This document shows positions 9,320 to 63,551 of a stretch of DNA of 64,000 nt, piece after piece (positions within the stretch are counted from its first letter, which is position 1; every line of letters begins with the position of its first letter). Under the pieces are notes generated by a model that had not been told where the DNA came from, ran no database searches, and saw only the letters and a program-made list of their open reading frames with translations. The DNA comes from a bacterium (GTDB lineage Bacteria; Zhuqueibacterota; Zhuqueibacteria; Residuimicrobiales; Krinioviventaceae). A program made the position numbers and the translations under genes. Where the stretch lies: assembly GCA_963675755.2 (NCBI GenBank), contig CAXXMD010000002.1:256001-320000 (forward strand), given 5' to 3'.

Positions 9320-10438
9320 TTAGATTTTATTGATTTCGGTTTTGATACCCATCGTATCTATATCACTAATAAACTGTTCAGGATCTACTATATTGGCCTG
9401 ATACCATAAACCGGTTTTCTTAAATGTTCCTTCACTATATTGTTTTAAACAAGCAACTATGGGTACTGCTGTTAAAAAATATCCATCCGTATGCATCAGT
9501 TTAATTTGTATGTTTGATTGTTTATTGTTTGACAATCCCTCTGCTTCCAGGTTTAACATGGTAATAAATGGGGGCTTGCTGAATTTTTGCAGACCCCATT
9601 GAAACAATTTCCCAAATTTCTTTTCAGATTTTGGAAACCATTTTAATCCCAGCATTACGATTGGTGTAATAAGATAATCTGTTATTCCATTGAATCCCGT
9701 AATGTAAAACCCGGTTTCCTGTAATGATGGTATTAAATCCAAAAGTTCTTCAAATTCATTCATCACCATGGCAATACAATTCGCTTTGCCTACGGGGTAT
9801 CCAAAGTCATATTTGGGCATATTTTTGTAAGCAAGCGTGGTCCATTCTCTGTTCTGGATTATCTGTGGTTTGTAATCTTTGAATTCATGCACCATTTCCA
9901 GCACGGTTGATTCTGAAAAAGTATAAGCCTGCCAGTCCAGCCGGATTGTGCTAAAGATATTACCAGTGACTAGTTCATCCATTTCACTTGCAGCATAACG
10001 GACCAACGCAGCTGGAACCCCCGGATGAAATCCTGCATCTGTAATGAAAAGCCGCTCATTCCTGAGCATTTCTGGTCTGTATTTTTTTAAAATATTCAGT
10101 TTCTGATGATTTGATAATTGTGTGTCCAAATAATCGGTTCCGGTATTGATTGCTGCTTTTATCACATTTTCAACATATTCCATTGTGCTCGAAGCCATTA
10201 CAGTCATATCTGCCAGGGTAAATGCTGATTCAAGACTCTTTTGGTTTGCTGCATCAACTACCAGAGCATGAACACGATTACCTGAAAACATTTTGTTCAA
10301 CTCGTCGGATGTTTCCTGAGCACGATTTTTATTCCTGCCCGCAATGATGACATTTGAATCTGTGTGTAATAACAGTAATTCAGCAATCTGGAAACCTGTG
10401 TTTCCGTACCCACCAACAATCAGGAATGTTTTACTCAT
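9320..10438 (-). CDS. Saccharopine dehydrogenase-like NAD(P)-binding oxidoreductase
   Basis: IVGGYGNTG, IAGRN, YLD, AGFHPGVP motifs. Confidence 0.82.
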   Translation of the reverse strand: MSKTFLIVGGYGNTGFQIAELLLLHTDSNVIIAGRNKNRAQETSDELNKMFSGNRVHALVVDAANQKSLESAFTLADMTVMASSTMEYVENVIKAAINTGTDYLDTQLSNHQKLNILKKYRPEMLRNERLFITDAGFHPGVPAALVRYAASEMDELVTGNIFSTIRLDWQAYTFSESTVLEMVHEFKDYKPQIIQNREWTTLAYKNMPKYDFGYPVGKANCIAMVMNEFEELLDLIPSLQETGFYITGFNGITDYLITPIVMLGLKWFPKSEKKFGKLFQWGLQKFSKPPFITMLNLEAEGLSNNKQSNIQIKLMHTDGYFLTAVPIVACLKQYSEGTFKKTGLWYQANIVDPEQFISDIDTMGIKTEINKI

Positions 10439-10450
10439 AAATCCCTCTAA

Positions 10451-11677
10451 TTAAAAGTAAACCCTTAATCTGGCAAGACCACCATTGCCCATATTTTGGG
10501 CATAACATCTGCCATTTTTACCGGTATAATAATTACCAAAAACTGTCAATTCAACATCCTGAAATACACTGTATACTATCATTGGAACAAGCGCTGCTGA
10601 ACCATCACTAATACTGTATATGGTCGATAATCCGGCGGTAATGAGGTCCGTTGCCGGGTATTGAACCAATCCTGAAAACTGGTCTTGTGATAGTGTCTTC
10701 ATTTCCGAGGAAAACATCCACATCCAATCATTCAAATCATAATTCTGCCAATCCGATTTTGCCATTGAATTGTGATAATATTCACCCATAACATACAAAC
10801 CTGATTCAAAAGTATAATCAATTCCTGCTAACCATTCCCAATGATCTTTGATGGATTGAATATTAATGTCAGATTTGCTTTCCATCATGTTATAGGCACC
10901 TTCTGCCCAGACACCCAAGCTCAACAATTCTCCAACCAAATCTCCACCAATCAAATCTCTTTTATAATCCACTGCTTGGAAGGAATAATAATCTGTAAAA
11001 GTCCAGTACCTGCTTAATCCCATAACAGAGACGTCAAAATGACCCAGTCTGCTTTTGAGTTTCAACATTTTAGCTGTATCTTTCCATTCTTCTCCCGCGG
11101 CAAGAATGGACACCAGACTAAATCTGTCACCCAATGGCATTTCAAGTTTAATGGCATTTTGACCGGGTTGTTCATAAGTGGGGTCGAGTATATCTTTATG
11201 ATTAAAAACATCTGTAGGGTTCCAGGTATAACCTGTGCCCATGGGTAACTGTTGTTTCCCAACGGTTAGATCGAATTTGTCAAAAGCCAATCTTACATAT
11301 GCATTGTCTAAAAAGATTTTATCTGCTCTGTCAACATACATGGGCCCTATATTGGATACCATATCTCCAAAGTTGAAAACAAAATATGGCTTAATCATAG
11401 ACGGTACCTGAGCCGTTATGTTTGTGGGGAGGTAATCCAGCATGTTCCACTCGGTTTTACCATGATATGTGATATAATCAAAATTAGCACCAAAAGAGAC
11501 CCTGTCTGACAGATCCTTGGCAATATCTAACCGAAGTTTGTTCGAACTAACATTATAATAATTATCTTTAAAATTCAGTACAGTATATTGGGGTTCAAAA
11601 TAACCATATATGTCCAGTTCTTGAGCAGAAAGGAGGGATGCGAGCAATAACAGTATTGTGAATACTTGTTTTGTCAT
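10451..11677 (-). CDS. Probable outer-membrane beta-barrel protein (DUF1302-like)
   Basis: Signal peptide, alternating aromatic strands, GKQQLPMG..WNPTD motif, C-terminal RVYF. Confidence 0.72.
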   Translation of the reverse strand: MTKQVFTILLLLASLLSAQELDIYGYFEPQYTVLNFKDNYYNVSSNKLRLDIAKDLSDRVSFGANFDYITYHGKTEWNMLDYLPTNITAQVPSMIKPYFVFNFGDMVSNIGPMYVDRADKIFLDNAYVRLAFDKFDLTVGKQQLPMGTGYTWNPTDVFNHKDILDPTYEQPGQNAIKLEMPLGDRFSLVSILAAGEEWKDTAKMLKLKSRLGHFDVSVMGLSRYWTFTDYYSFQAVDYKRDLIGGDLVGELLSLGVWAEGAYNMMESKSDINIQSIKDHWEWLAGIDYTFESGLYVMGEYYHNSMAKSDWQNYDLNDWMWMFSSEMKTLSQDQFSGLVQYPATDLITAGLSTIYSISDGSAALVPMIVYSVFQDVELTVFGNYYTGKNGRCYAQNMGNGGLARLRVYF

Positions 11678-12432
11678 TTTTTTAACTCTCTTTCGGTAAA
11701 CATGTCATCATCCAAGTCGATATTATATTGAATGTCTTTGATTTTCATTATGGTATTGGTATTGTCATTTCGGTTTACCATTTCCATAAAGGTACCTGTG
11801 GGAATGCTATCAATAACTTTAATTTCTTTTTGGTACAAAGATTTTTCAACCCGGTCAGGATCATCTTTATAATAATCTATTACAACCGGTACAAAATTTT
11901 CTTTGACTACCCACATGACCATTTTTACATAAGCCGAACTTGCATCCGGTTTTCGGTTTAATTCTAATTTATAGCAATTGTAACCTTCTTTTTCCTCACT
12001 ACCTGTTATGGTAGTTGTAAAGTCCGTTAAAAAAGCGTTTGATGCGCCCATATCTTCATAAGAAAAATCGCTGCCTTCCATTTTTTGTTTTTTTGCATGT
12101 GTTGCCAATTTCCTAACTCTCTTTGTCCGTACAAAATAGGACCATATATCATCCGCATTATTGAGCATTAAAATCTTTTGTCCCTTTACCCGCTGGGGGG
12201 ATTCATAGATCATTAGATTTTTTTCGCCCTTGTCTTTTGAATAGGTAAGGTATTCAAAAGTACGCTTATCTCCGCTCGAAGTGGTTATAGTCATTTCCAT
12301 TGTTGCTTTACTTGATGGTTGGTTCATTAAATCATTAACTTTTTTTATTATTTCATCTGCTGTAGGTTCTGCTGCAAACGATGGTATGGCTATGAAAAAT
12401 CCTAAAAATAAGGGGATTATTTTCAACTTCAT
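11674..12432 (-). CDS. Outer-membrane lipoprotein-sorting (LolA-like) protein
   Basis: Signal peptide, P.RVKG..IL, WSY..RVRKL, GSDFSYEDM, C-terminal FTEREL. Confidence 0.85.
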   Translation of the reverse strand: MKLKIIPLFLGFFIAIPSFAAEPTADEIIKKVNDLMNQPSSKATMEMTITTSSGDKRTFEYLTYSKDKGEKNLMIYESPQRVKGQKILMLNNADDIWSYFVRTKRVRKLATHAKKQKMEGSDFSYEDMGASNAFLTDFTTTITGSEEKEGYNCYKLELNRKPDASSAYVKMVMWVVKENFVPVVIDYYKDDPDRVEKSLYQKEIKVIDSIPTGTFMEMVNRNDNTNTIMKIKDIQYNIDLDDDMFTERELKK

Positions 12433-13025
12433 TTTTTTGCTCCTTTTTTAGGGTGAACGATCAAAAGTAAAATACCAATAAGCAGGGCCCCAAAACCAAA
12501 GACCCAGGTGAAAATTTCAAGCCCATATTTCAGAAAAATAGATACTGCTAAAATTCCACTTATGACCATGGTTTCACAGAAAAATAATAAAATTTTTCTC
12601 ACACTAAAAATAACCATAGAAAACATGGCGATACCTGTTGAAATTAACCAAAGACCCGGTATATAAATAGCTTGATCAATTTGTATAAATACAGTTGTAA
12701 AAATGATAGGGAACAAAAATATACTGAACGCTATGCCCCACATTTTCATTAGAAATGGATTAAAAGGTTCTATACCTCTGGATTTTGCCTCCCTGAACCA
12801 AAAAAATGTCTCCAGCGTTCCGCCAATGATAAATATTATAATCCATAAATTGAGAATGAATGAATATTGATTTGTTTTTATTAACCATTCTGTAATTAAC
12901 CCTCCGGCTAATCCCAAAAAGCCCCATTCAATCCATTGCCAGGGGGAGAAGAACATGCGGTCTGTCGCCTTGTCCATTAAATCACGAATATATTTAATCT
13001 GATCCAGTGCTTCTTCTTGTTTCAT
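12429..13025 (-). CDS. Integral membrane protein (about 6 TM), partner of HTH_34 regulator
   Basis: EEALDQIKYIR N-terminus followed by six hydrophobic helices. Confidence 0.7.
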   Translation of the reverse strand: MKQEEALDQIKYIRDLMDKATDRMFFSPWQWIEWGFLGLAGGLITEWLIKTNQYSFILNLWIIIFIIGGTLETFFWFREAKSRGIEPFNPFLMKMWGIAFSIFLFPIIFTTVFIQIDQAIYIPGLWLISTGIAMFSMVIFSVRKILLFFCETMVISGILAVSIFLKYGLEIFTWVFGFGALLIGILLLIVHPKKGAKK

Positions 13026-52884: not shown

Positions 52885-54090
52885 ATGGTTGCAGATACAG
52901 AAAAAATTATTACATATTCATTGAAAAATAGTAATGATTCTTCTGATACTTTTTATAAAGAGCTTTCTAGTTTTACTACCAGGTTTGAAATCTATTTTGA
53001 TGAAAAACTGGGTCCTGTGCTTGATAATTATACAAGTTTTATCAATTTCAATCATATCGAGTTATTACGTGATCGTCGTGAATACATGTTTGACTGGCTT
53101 GCTTTTGGTGTATTGTGGCGTCTATATATATCAACTGCGGTGGGAGTAAGTCCAGTTTCAACCCGTTTATTGACGGAGCTTTATTTCCTCAGAAGAAATT
53201 ACCGGAAATTTAAACCTGCTATTGATCGGGTACGTGGTATTTTATCAACCTTGTTGTTGGAAACCAATAATAACAGACATTTTTCCAACATTCCTTTAAA
53301 GATTGCAACTGTTACCAAGTTTTTAAATTATTTAGACGCTACCGGCGAGTTTCGTGAAGAAGTAAAGCGGTTCAAGATTATCTTACAATTTTTTAAACAT
53401 ATTGGTCCTGATAAAACGGAATCCATTATTGAAAAGACGATTGAATTTTCAGGCTGGTTCAAAGATGTTGCCAAACAGGAATTCAAAGACTATACACCTT
53501 TTGTTGAATCTTTTATAGCAAATCAGGCCAAATCACATCGTTGGAAAGAAGATTATTTGTTTTGTAATCGCGGTGAAACAGAATATTATTTGAATATGGT
53601 GGGAAGCGAATTGATGAACCGTGCATTTGTTTCAAATTTTCACCAGACTCAAAGAAAAGCTGTTCTTTTACCTGCATGTATGCGAAAACATGCAAATGAT
53701 GGTCAATGCAAAGCAAAACGAATCAGTTTGGATTTTGTATGTACCGGCTGTGATAAGTCTTGCAAAATTAATCAATATACACAATTGGGAAAAGAACACG
53801 ATTTTGATGTACATATAATCCCGCATTCATCTGATTTTACGGCCTGGCTTGAGAACTTTGCAAAAGACCGGCAGGTAGGTGTTGTTGGTGTAGCATGTTT
53901 GTTAAATTTAATTACCGGTGGTTTGGAACTGAAATCCTTGAACATTCCCGCTCAATGCGTTTTCCTTGATAATTGCGGCTGTACAAATCATTGGCATGAG
54001 ACCGGTGTGGCTACGGATATCAATCCTCTGCAATTGTTAAAAGTTCTTGATGCTCCAAGCAGTATTCGGAAGCATGCGGCAGTTGCGTAA
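52885..54090 (+). CDS. DUF116 domain protein with long N-terminal extension
   Basis: LLPACMR..C.A..CTGC...C, VGVAC, C.FLD.CGC C-terminal Cys cluster. Confidence 0.75.
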   Translation: MVADTEKIITYSLKNSNDSSDTFYKELSSFTTRFEIYFDEKLGPVLDNYTSFINFNHIELLRDRREYMFDWLAFGVLWRLYISTAVGVSPVSTRLLTELYFLRRNYRKFKPAIDRVRGILSTLLLETNNNRHFSNIPLKIATVTKFLNYLDATGEFREEVKRFKIILQFFKHIGPDKTESIIEKTIEFSGWFKDVAKQEFKDYTPFVESFIANQAKSHRWKEDYLFCNRGETEYYLNMVGSELMNRAFVSNFHQTQRKAVLLPACMRKHANDGQCKAKRISLDFVCTGCDKSCKINQYTQLGKEHDFDVHIIPHSSDFTAWLENFAKDRQVGVVGVACLLNLITGGLELKSLNIPAQCVFLDNCGCTNHWHETGVATDINPLQLLKVLDAPSSIRKHAAVA

Positions 54091-57638: not shown

Positions 57639-58586
57639 ATGAAAACAAAAAATATCTTGAAATTCGTTGTTTTAGCAATTTGGATTGGAATTGTGGGCTT
57701 GAATGTGCATTTTTCAAATGCAAAGGAAGATAACATGAAATATAACAAACTTACACCGGAAGAAGAACGTGTTATAATTAATAAAGGAACTGAAAGGCCC
57801 TATACAGGACAGTATTACAAGTTTGAAGAAAATGGTACCTATACATGTAAGCGTTGTGACGCACCTTTGTACAAATCTTCAGACAAGTTTGACGCCCATT
57901 GCGGTTGGCCCAGTTTTGATGATGAAATTGAAGGTGCCGTTAAACGCCAAACAGATGCTGACGGACATCGGACTGAAATATTGTGTGCCAATTGTGGAGC
58001 GCATTTGGGGCATGTTTTTACCGGTGAACAGTTTACAATAAAAAATACTCGCCATTGCGTGAATTCCATATCATTGAATTTTGTACCCGCAGGAGAAATG
58101 ATGCAAACACAAAATGCCTATTTTGCAGGTGGATGTTTTTGGGGAACGGAATACTATTTCCAGCAAGCCAAAGGAGTAAAGAGTACGACTGTAGGTTATA
58201 TGGGCGGCGATAAAGATGATCCCACTTATAAACAAGTATGCAGTGGTACTACCGGTCATGCTGAAGTTGTCAAGGTAGAGTTTGATCCGAAACAAACTGA
58301 TTTTGAAACCCTGGCAAAATTGTTTTTCGAGATCCATGATCCTACTCAGGTAGACCGTCAAGGTCCCGATATTGGTGAACAGTATCGTTCTGCTATTTTT
58401 TATACCAGCGAGGATCAGAAAAAGACTTCAGAAAAGTTGATTGATGTTTTAAAGGATAAGGGTTACAAAGTGGCTACAGAGCTGGTAAAAGCTGATGATT
58501 TTTGGGATGCTGAGGACTATCATCAGGATTATTACCAGCACAATGGTAAAGAACCTTATTGTCATTTTTATACCAAGCGGTTTTAA
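57639..58586 (+). CDS. msrAB: Exported bifunctional methionine sulfoxide reductase MsrB-MsrA
   Basis: Signal peptide; GTERP, CGWPSF, HLGHVF, RHCVNS (MsrB); GGCFWG, GHAE, AEDYHQDY (MsrA). Confidence 0.95.
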   Translation: MKTKNILKFVVLAIWIGIVGLNVHFSNAKEDNMKYNKLTPEEERVIINKGTERPYTGQYYKFEENGTYTCKRCDAPLYKSSDKFDAHCGWPSFDDEIEGAVKRQTDADGHRTEILCANCGAHLGHVFTGEQFTIKNTRHCVNSISLNFVPAGEMMQTQNAYFAGGCFWGTEYYFQQAKGVKSTTVGYMGGDKDDPTYKQVCSGTTGHAEVVKVEFDPKQTDFETLAKLFFEIHDPTQVDRQGPDIGEQYRSAIFYTSEDQKKTSEKLIDVLKDKGYKVATELVKADDFWDAEDYHQDYYQHNGKEPYCHFYTKRF

Positions 58587-58710: not shown

Positions 58711-59754
58711 TTATTTCAAGAGAGACAGTTTGTTTACAATCTTTTGACTACCTGTATTGATTTCATAAAAGTACATTCCGCTTGACATATGTTGACCATA
58801 CCGATTGGTTCCATTCCAATTTTGACTGTGGATGCCTTCACCAAGGTATCCCATGTCATAATCCATTACCAATTGTCCACGAATGTTATATATTTTCAAA
58901 GTTACATTTGCTGGTTCTTCAAGAGAAAACTGTATTGTTGTTCCTGGATTAGCAGGATTAGGATAATTTGAAGCTTTGAATGTTGAATTACTGGTTTCAA
59001 TGCTACCCTGCTGATTTGCCGGATTAGTACAATTTATATTTTTTTTTCCTAAACCTTTTCCGCGTCCTTGTCCATTGCCGCCACGTTCAATAGCAGATTC
59101 AATAATTTCAGTAAATTCTTCTACTGAAATATATTGTGGTTCATATGTTAAATCCTGTGCAGAATAAAGATTATTAAAGGCACGCATATGGTTTCTTGAA
59201 CCTTTTAAGAGATTGGTATAAACCAGGGTAATATCCTGATTGTCTGTACGTTCCAGTGTTTCATGCAGATCATAGATATCCAGATCTTCAATGGTCAAGC
59301 CAACATACAATGCTTCAATCAGAGATTGACTTCCTGATTCTACTAAGCTGTTATAGATTGCCTGAAGATCTGCATTGCTGAATTTCCCTGTTTCTTCCTG
59401 AAAAGGATCTTCAAGTTCGTATTTATCGATTAAAAGTTTCACCATATCAGTATGCTGCTGCTCACTTTTAGCGATGTTTGTGAAAACAGCAGTTTGCCAT
59501 TTTTCATATAAAACCTGGTAAACGTCATGTGCAAGTTTTTCTTCTTCACGCATATGAAGTAAATCGTTAATTTCGGCTTCTGATAAATCTTCGAAAGGAA
59601 GGTCTGCTAAAATAGCAGAAGCATTAATACCACCGGTATTCCCTTTGTTACCGCGATTACCAAAATTTCCTCTTCCCTGAGCAAAGAGTGTTTGACTTGT
59701 AACGAATGTGACAATCAGCATTGCTGCAATTAATAATGTTTTAGAGTTTTTCAT
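58711..59754 (-). CDS. Secreted DUF2202 ferritin-like protein fused to FlgD-Ig/T9SS-type C-terminal tail
   Basis: Signal peptide, MREEEKLAHDVY, SEQQH, IEDLDI.DL, GSRNHMRAF; NYPNPANP..WNG..SSGMYFY tail. Confidence 0.85.
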   Translation of the reverse strand: MKNSKTLLIAAMLIVTFVTSQTLFAQGRGNFGNRGNKGNTGGINASAILADLPFEDLSEAEINDLLHMREEEKLAHDVYQVLYEKWQTAVFTNIAKSEQQHTDMVKLLIDKYELEDPFQEETGKFSNADLQAIYNSLVESGSQSLIEALYVGLTIEDLDIYDLHETLERTDNQDITLVYTNLLKGSRNHMRAFNNLYSAQDLTYEPQYISVEEFTEIIESAIERGGNGQGRGKGLGKKNINCTNPANQQGSIETSNSTFKASNYPNPANPGTTIQFSLEEPANVTLKIYNIRGQLVMDYDMGYLGEGIHSQNWNGTNRYGQHMSSGMYFYEINTGSQKIVNKLSLLK

Positions 59755-59791
59755 GATGTTTCTCCTTTTTGTTAGATTTTACCCCTGCTTA

Positions 59792-59807
59792 TGCAAGGGG
59801 TGTGCCA
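59792..59807 (-). promoter_or_regulatory. sigma54 -24/-12 promoter
   Basis: Minus strand TGGCACACCCCTTGCA matches TGGCAC-N5-TTGCA, about 40 bp before the DUF2202 start. Confidence 0.85.
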
Positions 59808-59879
59808 TTTTATTTTATCTGTTCTAATCTCTTGTTTTTGGATAAGTTACGTAAATAGTCATGTTTTGTAAGATTGAAT

Positions 59880-59930
59880 GATTTCGACGACTCGGGCGAG
59901 AAATCTCGACAATTTGGTCGAAATCTCAAA
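59880..59930. promoter_or_regulatory. Putative enhancer (bEBP binding sites) shared by divergent sigma54 promoters
   Basis: GATTTCGAC (59880-88), CGAGAAATCTCG (59897-908), GTCGAAATC (59917-25): related sites about 20 bp apart. Confidence 0.6.
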
Positions 59931-59998
59931 CTTGAGTATTTTGCTAAACTTACCATAACTATCTAATAAATAGTTACTTACTTCATTGGGTAATGTTT

Positions 59999-60014
59999 TG
60001 GCATAACAATTGAA
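59999..60014 (+). promoter_or_regulatory. sigma54-type promoter (TTGA variant)
   Basis: TGGCATAACAATTGAA, GG-N10-GA, upstream of 60077. Confidence 0.6.
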
Positions 60015-60076
60015 TAAGCAAAAGAAATTTCTATCAAGAGAGAATTAAAATTATAAAATTTTTTTTAGGAGGGACC

Positions 60077-60460
60077 GTGAAGACAAAATTCATGTTTTCT
60101 GCAATATTTGTTGCTATTGCTCTTTATTTTTCTACTGCGTCTGCGTGTGAAATTGAAGTTTCTGTAAAAGGAGAAAATGCAGCAATTTATAATCCCGGAC
60201 AAGTTGTTGTTTTGCAGGTCAAAGTTTTTCTAACTCACAAGGATTGTCCTGAAGGTATAAAATCAACAAAAATGAATCCATCTGGTATGACCTTGTTGGG
60301 TGCAACCAAATGGAAACAAATCTCAGATCTGGAATACATTCGTTTGGTTCAGGCAAAAATTGATTCTTCTGTAACCGAGGCAATTTTAAATGTTGGCCGC
60401 TCATGTGATAAAGAGGGTGGTATTGGTAAAATATTATTAAAAGTTGGGCAGGGTTCATAA
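60077..60460 (+). CDS. Small exported protein with three Cys
   Basis: AGGAGG RBS, GTG start, signal peptide ending ASA/C, THKDC and RSCDKEGG motifs. Confidence 0.75.
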   Translation: MKTKFMFSAIFVAIALYFSTASACEIEVSVKGENAAIYNPGQVVVLQVKVFLTHKDCPEGIKSTKMNPSGMTLLGATKWKQISDLEYIRLVQAKIDSSVTEAILNVGRSCDKEGGIGKILLKVGQGS

Positions 60461-61485
60461 TGAGGAATATCATAATTATTGCTTTATTGTTCATTATTGG
60501 AATTTCCTTTTCCCAGGAAACAGATTCTACTGAATTGTCATTTGATGATTTTGGAGCTGAATTTGAATCCATTTCCGATTCTGAATTAGAAGACATTTCA
60601 ACATCTACTCATAGCTGTTCTACCATAGCAGGAATGCCAAAAGGATTGTACTATTCACTTATAGCATTATCAATGACTTTAATAGCTGGTATTTTTGTTA
60701 AATTTAAAGCTCTACGTAAATTCCGTTATCTTTTCCTTCTTTCATCATTGATTGTGTTTGGATTTTGGAATGGTGGCTGCCCTTGCTCAATTTCAAGTTT
60801 TCAAAATGTATTTTTAAAGATTTTTGGTGCCACCGTAAACTGGCACAGTCTTGTATGGTTTTTAGGTTTGATTCCCATTACCTATATATTCGGCAAAGTC
60901 TGGTGTGGTTGGGTTTGCCATTTGGGAGCCTTTCAGGAATTTTTATACAGAATAACAGATGTGAAAATTGTGAAATCTAAAGGTTTCCAAAAATCACTTA
61001 AAATTTTACAATATAGTGTTTTCGTAATTCTTGTGATTCAGTTATTTGTAACCAAAACCAATATTTTTATCCATTATGATCCATTCAAAGTTGCCTTTAA
61101 TATGATTTCTTTTCATACATCCGGCTGGGTATTACTGGGTATTTTACTTGTCAGTTCTTTATTTATCTATCGCCCTTTTTGTAAAGGATTTTGTCCTGTT
61201 GGTTTGGCATTGGGGTGGGTAGGCAAGATACCGGGTGCCCATAAACTCCAGATAGCCGGCAGTTGTACTAGCTGCAAATCCTGCATACGTCATTGTGATA
61301 TGCAGGCAATTTCGGATGATTATAAAGCTGACAGTCATAGCTGTATTTTATGCGGTGATTGTCTTGATTATTGTAAAAAAGAATCTATCAAAGTTACGCA
61401 TAAAGGATTACAGAATGAAAAAAATATTGATCTTGTTGTTCCTGATTTCAAGCTTGAAACCATCGATAGCGAGAGACTGTCATAG
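60460..61485 (+). CDS. Membrane 4Fe-4S protein, NapH/MauN/NosR-like
   Basis: About 5 TM, GCPC, CGWVCHLG and CKGFCPVG motifs, two CxxCxxCxxxC motifs. Confidence 0.87.
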   Translation: MRNIIIIALLFIIGISFSQETDSTELSFDDFGAEFESISDSELEDISTSTHSCSTIAGMPKGLYYSLIALSMTLIAGIFVKFKALRKFRYLFLLSSLIVFGFWNGGCPCSISSFQNVFLKIFGATVNWHSLVWFLGLIPITYIFGKVWCGWVCHLGAFQEFLYRITDVKIVKSKGFQKSLKILQYSVFVILVIQLFVTKTNIFIHYDPFKVAFNMISFHTSGWVLLGILLVSSLFIYRPFCKGFCPVGLALGWVGKIPGAHKLQIAGSCTSCKSCIRHCDMQAISDDYKADSHSCILCGDCLDYCKKESIKVTHKGLQNEKNIDLVVPDFKLETIDSERLS

Positions 61486-62716
61486 CGATATTGGGGTTCA
61501 TTTAAAACCCATACTACCCAATTTACAATGGGCTGTTGAAACATCTGCATCAATTGGACAGATGTCTGGCAGTGGTATTGATAGAAGACTAAATACTGAA
61601 TCTTTATTTTGGGCATTGGATTATAATCTAAAAAAGTTTGAGATTTATCTTGAAGGTGGCGCAAAATACTGGCAAAAATCTGATGATGGCCCCGGTTTAG
61701 GTGCAATAGTAAGTGGCTGGGAAAGTTTACCCAAACCTGAACAACGTAATTTTGGTATGCGCGAAGCTTATACAAGATTGACATTATTTAATAACAGAAT
61801 GACCATGGGGTTGCAGTCAATGACCCTGGGTACAACCATGCTTCTTGATGAACGTGTATTGGGTATATCAAATAGCTATGAAAAAGGACATTACAAGTTT
61901 GAGCTCAAAGGTGGTACTGTATCTACTGACTTTGCACGTATGAATGATTTTTGTGGAACGCGTCATGTTTACAGGTTGTTACGTGGTGGCCGGTTTGATA
62001 TGGTAGCCACAGAACCCTGGAAGACCAATTTTTACGCTGCATCGATAACCTGGAATGCCGAAGAGCCTGTAGAAGTCGTTTCAGGAGATCAGAGTGAATT
62101 TGAAATGGAATCTTTTTCGGATTTTTCATTTGAATCGTTCGACGAAGAAGAGACCCATATCGTTCAAAATGCCGGATTGTTATTTTATCAAGAATTTGGT
62201 TCAGGTTTTTTTGATTACAAATATTATGGTGGTGCTTTTTCTGACATCCTTTTACCATTTGATGTTGATCTGCATTTAGAAATGATATATCAATATATCT
62301 GGCATGAACAAGCTGCTGCTTTTAAAGGACAATTTAGTAAAAATTTCAATATTTTTCCTGCATACCCATTTTCAACAAGTCTATCATATTACGGAGTTTA
62401 TGAGGTGAGTCAGGATGCACGGTTTTTTCCGGCATTCAGTAACCTTTATCTGGGTGAAGTCAGCCGGTTGGATGCATTGCACATGCCATTATTGGTTGTT
62501 GATGTTAAACAATACTTGCCTGGGAAGCTGGAACCTGCACTCCGTTTACAATATGTAAACCAGATTCAATTTGATCATAATACCGAGTTGGATTTTCAAT
62601 TATCAGCCAAATTGTTTAAAGGATTAAGAACAATCATCATGTTGAGTAAAATCGATTCTGATTTACTTTCAGAATCTGTAATGCTCAATAAACTTGAATG
62701 TCGTTGGTCATTCTAA
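61415..62716 (+). CDS. Probable outer-membrane beta-barrel protein
   Basis: AAAGGA RBS, signal peptide, REAY..GLQ..LG pattern, amphipathic strands, terminal aromatic ..RWSF. Confidence 0.62.
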   Translation: MKKILILLFLISSLKPSIARDCHSDIGVHLKPILPNLQWAVETSASIGQMSGSGIDRRLNTESLFWALDYNLKKFEIYLEGGAKYWQKSDDGPGLGAIVSGWESLPKPEQRNFGMREAYTRLTLFNNRMTMGLQSMTLGTTMLLDERVLGISNSYEKGHYKFELKGGTVSTDFARMNDFCGTRHVYRLLRGGRFDMVATEPWKTNFYAASITWNAEEPVEVVSGDQSEFEMESFSDFSFESFDEEETHIVQNAGLLFYQEFGSGFFDYKYYGGAFSDILLPFDVDLHLEMIYQYIWHEQAAAFKGQFSKNFNIFPAYPFSTSLSYYGVYEVSQDARFFPAFSNLYLGEVSRLDALHMPLLVVDVKQYLPGKLEPALRLQYVNQIQFDHNTELDFQLSAKLFKGLRTIIMLSKIDSDLLSESVMLNKLECRWSF

Positions 62717-62729
62717 TCAGGAGAACAGA

Positions 62730-63551
62730 ATGAATTCGGATCGAAGAATTTTTATAAAGAATTTAGGTGTACTTGCTGCAGGCTCAGCGGCAGGAATACT
62801 AACTGCTTGTACCAAACATGGCACGAATCCCTTAGAATTTGTCGATATATGTCAAAATACGTGTACCGGTTGTGGTGATTGTGTTGATTCCTGTCAGGAT
62901 AATGCAATTTTACTTGAGCAAAAATCAACATATGTCATAGATATAGATGATTGTACTGAATGTGGACAGTGTGTTCCTCACTGCAAGCTTGAAGCTATCC
63001 ATATCTCTTCAAGTCAATATATCCTGGATTCTGAAGAATGTATTGGATGTGGTTTGTGTATTGATGTGTGTGATCAGGAAGCACAGGCTATTGTTTGGGA
63101 GAGAGAAGAGTACCTGGTACGTGGTAAATGCAGAAACACTCATTGTAATTTTGAATGTGCTGCTGCTTGTCCTGAAAATGCAATAACCATTGTTAATAAT
63201 ACTGCCGTAATTGATATGGAAAAATGTACGCGTTGTGGTTTGTGTATCGCTCCATGTCCAGCAGAAGCAATTAATCCTGCGCATGTTGAAATGGTGGTTG
63301 ATCAATGTACCCGCTGTGGTAAATGTTTTGATGTCTGTGAATTTGATGCAATTACCAAAGTTGAACCTGAAGGCTATTCAGATCCCCATATTGATGCTGA
63401 GGTTTGTAATGCCTGCTCAGAATGTAAGGACTATTGTCCCGAAAATGCTATCTATGGTAAATTGTTTAAAGCACAAATTGATAACGAAAATTGTACTGCT
63501 TGTGGTGAATGTTTTGAAAAATGTACGTATGATGCAATACGGCATGTTTAA
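62730..63551 (+). CDS. Tat-exported lipoprotein polyferredoxin (8 x 4Fe-4S motifs)
   Basis: DRRIFIK Tat motif, LTAC lipobox, seven canonical CxxCxxCxxxC plus one spaced variant. Confidence 0.88.
   Translation: MNSDRRIFIKNLGVLAAGSAAGILTACTKHGTNPLEFVDICQNTCTGCGDCVDSCQDNAILLEQKSTYVIDIDDCTECGQCVPHCKLEAIHISSSQYILDSEECIGCGLCIDVCDQEAQAIVWEREEYLVRGKCRNTHCNFECAAACPENAITIVNNTAVIDMEKCTRCGLCIAPCPAEAINPAHVEMVVDQCTRCGKCFDVCEFDAITKVEPEGYSDPHIDAEVCNACSECKDYCPENAIYGKLFKAQIDNENCTACGECFEKCTYDAIRHV

Follow-up and report, generated by a model that had tools for sequence, protein, structure and literature searches.

A conserved gene cassette combines a NapGH-type iron-sulfur pair with a probable AlgE-like outer-membrane protein in a Zhuqueibacterota genome and related lineages

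NapH, a membrane protein with four transmembrane helices, and NapG, a soluble protein with four clusters, resemble MauMN and NosGH in their organization: one operon encodes a Fer4_5 membrane protein with CX3C(P) and two C-terminal 4Fe-4S motifs, together with a partner that is exported by the twin-arginine translocation (Tat) pathway and carries 4Fe-4S motifs only. To our knowledge, NapGH-type pairs that export electrons to the periplasm have been described only as suppliers of named reductases, and we know of no electron route to or across the outer membrane that does without haem. The porin-cytochrome conduits (MtrCAB, PioAB/MtoAB, Pcc) combine a multi-centre periplasmic redox protein with a quinol-linked inner-membrane protein and a barrel, which in MtrB has 26 strands. 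According to excerpts of the respective sources, NapGH delivers the electrons of menaquinol to enzymes in the periplasm and has come to serve different reductases, NapA or PceA (PMC4585668), the AlgE pore of about 5-10 Å is half filled by loops and has the lipoprotein AlgK as its partner (PMC4118822), and CcoG (FixG/RdxA), a membrane protein of the Fer4_5 superfamily with two 4Fe-4S clusters and a periplasmic Ig-like domain, is a proven Cu(II) reductase (PMC7558416). Here we analyzed a cassette of four genes in a window of 64,000 nucleotides (contig CAXXMD010000002.1 of assembly GCA_963675755.2, positions 256,001 to 320,000) from a bacterium of the Krinioviventaceae (Zhuqueibacterota). The genes, called B to E, encode a small exported cysteine protein, a NapH-like membrane Fe-S protein, a predicted outer-membrane barrel and an exported polyferredoxin, and they diverge from a gene for a secreted DUF2202 protein (A). 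A preliminary description of this DNA had suggested that the cassette could be a haem-free electron conduit through the envelope or a redox module for metal or envelope stress, with the DUF2202 protein as partner. The products of C and E are of a known kind; what is new is their fixed association with a barrel resembling AlgE and with the B family, which has no name. No published description of the cassette was found in the full-text literature, a search that does not cover gene lists in supplementary files.

The D family proved to be rare, with 14 clusters in 5.8 billion proteins. We found 31 D loci in contigs representing one genome per species and 34 in metagenomes, spread over several lineages of the Fibrobacterota-Chlorobiota-Bacteroidota (FCB) group and with the same gene order, suggesting that the arrangement is more than chance. 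In the class of the window organism, D was present in 7 of 125 genomes, all from one order, and the window genome contains a single copy of each cassette gene. For counting, loci were merged into one lineage when their D proteins were at least 85% identical, which left 44 dereplicated lineages, and a gene was scored as absent only where enough flanking sequence was available. C adjoined D in 38 of 42 lineages, compared with 32 of 37 for B and 27 of 39 for E, which places C and D at the core of the cassette, followed by B and then by E. The preliminary description had made its proposal depend on the co-conservation of these genes, and co-conserved they are.

The flanks were surveyed with one Pfam scan of 146 of 163 candidate open reading frames (ORFs) from 27 loci, leaving out the near-duplicate loci L031 and L019, a spurious ORF within C, one ORF of L013 and three large distant ORFs. 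Every family occurred in at most 5 of the 146 ORFs, the commonest being type IX secretion system (T9SS) tails, Rnf subunits (at two loci) and tetratricopeptide repeats. No reductase or cytochrome, the Nap, Mau and Nos enzymes included, was among the commonest 25 of the 193 flank families, a count that families occurring once or twice would escape. Within the cassette itself, Pfam and NCBIfam scans revealed no molybdopterin, hydrogenase or c-type cytochrome gene. The preliminary statement that the cassette has neither a catalytic subunit nor a multihaem cytochrome agrees with these scans, and no known terminal reductase or multihaem cytochrome recurs beside it among the commonest flank families. 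Two loci that have C and D and lack both B and E are immediately preceded by a cluster containing NuoB/NuoI-like, Complex1_49kDa and Mrp-antiporter-like genes (L020 2351-6528 and L023 44-6721). In L025 2827-6114 and L029 86-3372, both of Prolixibacteraceae type, Rnf-Nqr subunit genes lie directly upstream of B.

The protein encoded by D carries a signal peptide and ends in RWSF, and the C-terminus of its family forms an alternating hydrophobic strand that ends in Phe or another aromatic or hydrophobic residue. D had no Pfam match, even at E 10, and at that threshold neither D nor 13 relatives matched the model of PF13372 (Alginate_exp), for which a search of the window's own genome also returned nothing. 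Pfam scans of the 14 D relatives at loose thresholds yielded scattered single matches only. A lead, taken as such only, came from the Atlas, where 16 of the 30 clusters nearest to the D homologue P0014 were PF13372 Alginate_exp (score 0.96). Alignment with hhalign of 32 D sequences against 26 PF13372 members from the same phylum (an unpublished genome was left out) gave a probability of 92.2% with an E of 5.8e-7 over 366 columns, end to end, pairing GLQS..LLDERVLG with GRQE..RLiG and FSNLF with tF..lF, as well as E.D near the C-terminus. The value was 80.1% when signal peptides were removed. Twelve reversed, column-shuffled or block-shuffled controls reached at most 0.6%, and a Porin_O_P control gave 0.8%, a rough figure from an alignment that may mix two neighbouring paralogue sets. 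Counting the other way, the smaller alignments A1 and A7 yielded 28.9% (E 5.9e-4), with the register unchanged. Taken together, the Atlas features, the profile alignment and its controls indicate that D is very probably an outer-membrane beta-barrel of the AlgE type, in line with the barrel originally suggested.

D resembles AlgE in its full-length profile alignment, in its similar length and in an adjoining lipoprotein gene, as AlgE has with AlgK (excerpt of PMC4118822). It differs in the loss of several pore arginines, in two invariant Cys, in an acidic insert and in the lack of a polysaccharide context. Of 66 sequences, 61 have Cys22 as well as Cys180; four of the exceptions are truncated, and in the last one Tyr takes position 22. 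The insert, at about residues 225-247, is rich in Phe and in the window version reads SEF, ESF and DFSFESFDEEE rather than a strict DEF. By a hand count from the C-terminus it would lie at a periplasmic turn, with uncertain parity, and a scan for alternating hydrophobicity gave no reliable strand count. PDB sequence searches with D, B and Alginate_exp profiles returned nothing useful. Ferritin, a PDB match to D at E 0.17, was rejected as a homologue since this is chance level.

The protein encoded by C matched Fer4_5 of Pfam (E 2e-14), and its best NCBIfam matches were NapH/MauN, NosR and CcoG, all far below their cut-offs: 66.9 bits for TIGR02163 (cut-off 213.05), 57.3 for PRK09477 (cut-off 234) and 28 for the CcoG/FixG model TIGR02745 (cut-off 316.7). 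C carries one CX3CH, one CX3CP and two CxxCxxCxxxC motifs, supported by motif counts in 43 relatives. From hydropathy and charge, we predict a signal peptide, an acidic periplasmic tail of 42 residues and five transmembrane helices, with the CX3CH, the CX3CP and both 4Fe-4S motifs facing the cytoplasm. The second helix carries a CPC at its periplasmic end, kept in every aligned sequence covering the site. C resembles NapH, MauN and NosH as a Fer4_5 membrane protein with two C-terminal 4Fe-4S motifs, but differs from NapH in that CX3CH replaces the first CX3CP, in five predicted helices where NapH has four, in the additional N-terminal acidic tail and in the invariant CPC. CcoG, the metal-reducing member of the superfamily (excerpt of PMC7558416), is set apart by the low score of C against its model and by the lack of cco genes nearby. 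The tails of 43 C proteins contained 2.08 acidic DEF-like motifs per 100 aa, against 0.054 per 100 aa in the remainder of these proteins, and the tails often have a Cys cluster too. Since the insert of D has a similar acidic, DEF-like character, we infer that C and D may both display one kind of periplasmic segment, for docking or for cation binding. A direct hhalign comparison of the two families gave 15% over 22 columns, which we took as low-complexity likeness.

Seven stretches of E matched Fer4 (E 9.2e-40), and seven canonical motifs plus one variant make up its eight clusters, while relatives have 8, 10 or 12. R5, R6, F8, the lipobox Cys27 and the cluster Cys were invariant in 21 sequences. 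E resembles NapG in its Tat signal, in having 4Fe-4S motifs only and in sharing an operon with its membrane partner, and unlike NapG it has 8 to 12 clusters and a lipobox. Such variation in cluster number suits a wire better than a catalyst. For B, the start codon is GTG, preceded by AGGAGG. The family alignment revealed a signal of the general secretory (Sec) type, a conserved cleavage context with AxA before and C[ED] after the cut, which makes Cys the first mature residue, three conserved Cys in total and a conserved T-H-R-x-C motif. B had no family match in Pfam, NCBIfam, PDB or the Atlas, where its homologue P0023 led to unnamed clusters only, and 26 relatives scanned against Pfam at loose thresholds gave scattered single matches. 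PDB entry 4e6f (E 0.55) was rejected as a B homologue as being at chance level. A full HMMER scan of 1.84 billion proteins yielded 340 representatives of the B family, all small and free-standing. Both B and D are nameless in Pfam and NCBIfam. The motifs initially described (C-x3-C-(H/P) and two 4Fe-4S motifs in C, eight clusters in E, a terminal Phe in D and an exported Cys protein in B) were all recovered, and the NapH-like nature of C and the exported polyferredoxin E are borne out by the family matches and by the invariance of the Tat and lipobox residues.

An ORF listing placed A to E at the coordinates first proposed (Table 1), with a 1-nt overlap of B and C, a 71-nt overlap of C and D and a 13-nt gap between D and E. 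The longer overlap hinges on the choice of D start. The open frame of D begins at 61295 and that of E at 62694, each upstream of the ATG used here. A public gene call (P0001, 420 aa) starts D 13 codons further in; we favoured the ATG at 61415 because the signal peptides of relatives precede the conserved Cys. The gene downstream of E, FGE-sulfatase/GldK-like, is convergent, so the operon ends at 63551. Both palindromes between A and B were kept in the relative L002, which is 92% identical, with variable flanking bases, and they may be operators. The Bacteroidetes-type promoter pattern was found at 3 sites in the window versus 4.7 expected, none of them near the cassette.

Table 1. Genes and repeats of the cassette region, in coordinates of the 64,000-nucleotide window.
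Feature	Position	Strand	Length	Description	Remark
A	58711-59754	-	347 aa	DUF2202 and T9SS C-terminal sorting domain	Outside core
B	60077-60460	+	127 aa	Small Sec-exported 3-Cys protein	Unnamed family
C	60460-61485	+	341 aa	NapH/Fer4_5-type membrane Fe-S protein	
D	61415-62716	+	433 aa	Predicted outer-membrane protein, probable distant AlgE/Alginate_exp relative	
E	62730-63551	+	273 aa	Tat-signal lipoprotein polyferredoxin, eight 4Fe-4S motifs	
Imperfect palindrome	59880-59925	.	22+22 nt	A/B intergenic	Repeat search and L002 alignment
Second palindrome	59956-59976			TAACTATCTA/TAAATAGTTA	A/B intergenic

The product of A matched DUF2202 (PF09968) with an E of 2.6e-57 and 193.6 bits (cut-off 22), and its sorting domain matched Por_Secre_tail (40.7 bits, cut-off 27) and TIGR04183 (51 bits, cut-off 23). 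The sole mention of DUF2202 found in the literature is as a ferritin-like protein within ferrosome gene clusters. Of the 44 lineages, 4 had a DUF2202 domain in the vicinity of D, while in a fifth the match was confined to the T9SS tail, so that the secreted protein, once put forward as the partner of the cassette, is at most an occasional one and does not belong to the core. Its T9SS tail (residues ~261-347) has very many, uncounted matches on all three contigs of the genome, which suggests a very large set of putative T9SS cargo in this organism. Farther upstream, the genes are unrelated to the cassette: GH127, GDPD, glyoxalase, DUF116 and an exported MsrB-MsrA fusion. The DUF116 protein (52885-54090, 401 aa) has a Cys-rich C-terminal half. 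The MsrB-MsrA fusion (57639-58586), with an N-terminal hydrophobic signal or anchor, is directly upstream of the DUF2202 gene, an arrangement otherwise seen only in L002.

Several contexts of the cassette involve metals or stress, among them the DUF2202 domain in 4 of 44 lineages and the exported MsrB-MsrA upstream in the window and in L002. In 7 of 30 lineages, E is followed by a paralogue of B and a permease like ArsP_1, SO_0444 or SaoE, a kind treated in the excerpted preprint 10.1101/2022.07.06.499078. An extracytoplasmic function (ECF) sigma factor with a zf-HC2 anti-sigma factor flanks the cassette in 5 of 44 lineages, and a CpxP/Metal_resist protein likewise in 5 of 44. Immediately behind the B-C-D locus of L084, which lacks E, genes for a ferritin, a desulfoferrodoxin, a rubrerythrin and a Fur-family regulator (10271-12757) occupy the other strand, and an exported thioredoxin adjoins L079. 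The B paralogue beside the permease has the middle Cys only, and its gene overlaps the permease start directly after E at L014 10604-11984 as well as at L015, L017, L019, L021, L024, L025, L028 and L029.

Our tentative proposal, plausible without yet being probable, is that the cassette encodes a NapGH-type redox module of the envelope that is coupled to a channel and, when the envelope is stressed, acts on a solute that is a thiophilic metal, metalloid or sulfur species. Its parts might work together as follows, where we infer the direction of electron flow, the contacts between proteins and the substrate. C, in the inner membrane, would draw electrons from menaquinol or from a donor in the cytoplasm, using its cytoplasmic 4Fe-4S and CX3C(H/P) sites. 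E, exported in folded form by Tat and tethered by its lipid, would carry them through the periplasm along its 8 clusters (10 or 12 elsewhere). D would be a narrow AlgE-like channel of the outer membrane that lets a small solute in or out, and E could dock beneath it. The solute would be handled at periplasmic thiol sites, namely the three Cys of B, two sites of C (the CPC and the N-terminal Cys) and the two Cys of D. The cell might respond to envelope stress by reducing a thiophilic metal, metalloid or sulfur species in the periplasm or by keeping it in reduced form. A thiophilic solute is suggested by the thiol-rich exported sites, the permease of the ArsP/SO_0444/SaoE kind and the stress-type neighbours, and a channel like AlgE could pass a small solute and not a folded ferredoxin domain. 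Metal reduction has a precedent in the Fer4_5 relative CcoG with its Cu(II) reductase activity (excerpt of PMC7558416). The metal and stress option of the preliminary description fits these contexts better than its conduit option, which has lost ground. Several points weigh against our proposal. Each metal or stress association was seen in a minority of lineages only (4-7), the window cassette has no adjoining permease, sigma factor or metal-binding family, and no part of the cassette matches a metal-specific family in Pfam or NCBIfam. The conserved Cys could be structural or redox disulfides instead of metal ligands, and the match of D to the AlgE type is weaker with smaller alignments (28.9%). 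As for the NapGH-type pair, the scores of C are far below the NapH and CcoG cut-offs, and NapG is not among the best 25 of the 82 NCBIfam matches of E. The lipid anchor of E could sit in either membrane, and 12 of 39 lineages have no E beside D, indicating that the wire is not part of the core and that the module can work without it or be completed from elsewhere.

The absence of E also bears on the original idea of a wire threaded through the barrel in the manner of MtrAB. We consider it very unlikely that E is lodged in D or attached to it, wholly or by its N-terminal part, and exchanges electrons with extracellular acceptors or donors as MtrA does in MtrB, forming a haem-free conduit across the outer membrane. 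The layout is similar, with an inner-membrane redox protein, a multi-centre periplasmic lipoprotein and a barrel; no terminal enzyme recurs in the 146 flanking ORFs, the wire has 8, 10 or 12 clusters and D has two near-invariant Cys, while AlgE itself works with a periplasmic lipoprotein, AlgK (excerpt of PMC4118822). However, the cassette differs from the porin-cytochrome conduits in having no haem motifs, a small barrel and a wire that 12 of 39 lineages dispense with. The full-length match of D is to the AlgE type, whose lumen is narrow and half filled by loops, so that threading is hard to picture; large porins that hold cofactors are of a different kind. A two-cluster ferredoxin domain is far wider than the AlgE lumen. 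Moreover, E proteins mostly lack, after the lipid Cys, the acidic surface-export signal generally known for Bacteroidota lipoproteins, and the genome already has multihaem ORFs for such work. It contains 22 ORFs with at least three CxxCH (top counts 37, 25, 20, 20 and 19), and judging from these motifs the organism is rich in predicted multihaem cytochromes. Examples in this genome (G000) are C1:387393-390047, C2:1674449-1678883 and C3:1627828-1630638. A broader version, in which E bridges C and D, docked directly or via a partner on the DEF motifs, and electrons reach the surface or a substrate at the barrel mouth along a haem-free path spanning the envelope, seems to us decidedly unlikely as well, if slightly less so.

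Three further explanations leave D in a lesser or different role. The cassette could serve envelope repair, exporting reducing power to periplasmic thiols or Msr during oxidative stress; B would then be a thiol carrier and D only loosely involved. We regard this as unlikely: it would account for the exported MsrB-MsrA upstream in the window and L002, the oxidative-stress cluster at L084, the exported thioredoxin at L079 and the zinc-finger anti-sigma and CpxP-like proteins that flank the cassette in 5 of 44 lineages, but beyond the window itself Msr adjoins the cassette only in the 92%-identical relative (cluster c13, 2 loci), B has neither a thioredoxin-like CxxC nor a family match, and the tight coupling of C to an outer-membrane channel is left without a reason. 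That tight coupling also bears on an ordinary NapGH-like quinol dehydrogenase serving a distantly encoded periplasmic reductase, with B and D as a separate uptake pair sharing the operon. C and D form the tightest pair (38 of 42 lineages), exceeding C and E, the CPC and the DEF tail are specific to the C family, the latter partly common to D, and no reductase recurs nearby; we rate this arrangement as slightly less likely still, even though NapGH-like pairs serve NapA or PceA (excerpt of PMC4585668) and the motifs and export signals of C and E match. We attach hardly any credence to D exporting an anionic polymer or peptide as AlgE does, with the Fe-S proteins unrelated or regulatory. The homology of D to Alginate_exp in the profile alignment speaks for this, as does the action of 18-strand barrels in polysaccharide export with periplasmic partners (excerpt of PMC9601211), whereas glycosyltransferase, OPX and polymerase families do not recur in the 146 flanking ORFs and the arginine of the GRQ motif of PF13372 is Leu in D (GLQS).

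The cassette presents a NapGH-type pair locked to a predicted outer-membrane channel and to thiol-rich exported proteins, with no enzyme attached, and recurs in about 44 FCB lineages of sediment or anaerobic bacteria. Cultured carriers exist (Labilibacter sediminis CG51, Mangrovibacterium lignilyticum BM_7, Carboxylicivirga caseinilyticus A049, Saccharicrinis sp. 156 and FJH54), which makes its function directly testable. If the cassette does handle metals or metalloids, as in our tentative proposal, the envelope would have a new redox-linked system for this task. Should electrons reach the outer membrane instead, the cassette would provide an iron-sulfur equivalent of the porin-cytochrome conduits, the first of its kind.

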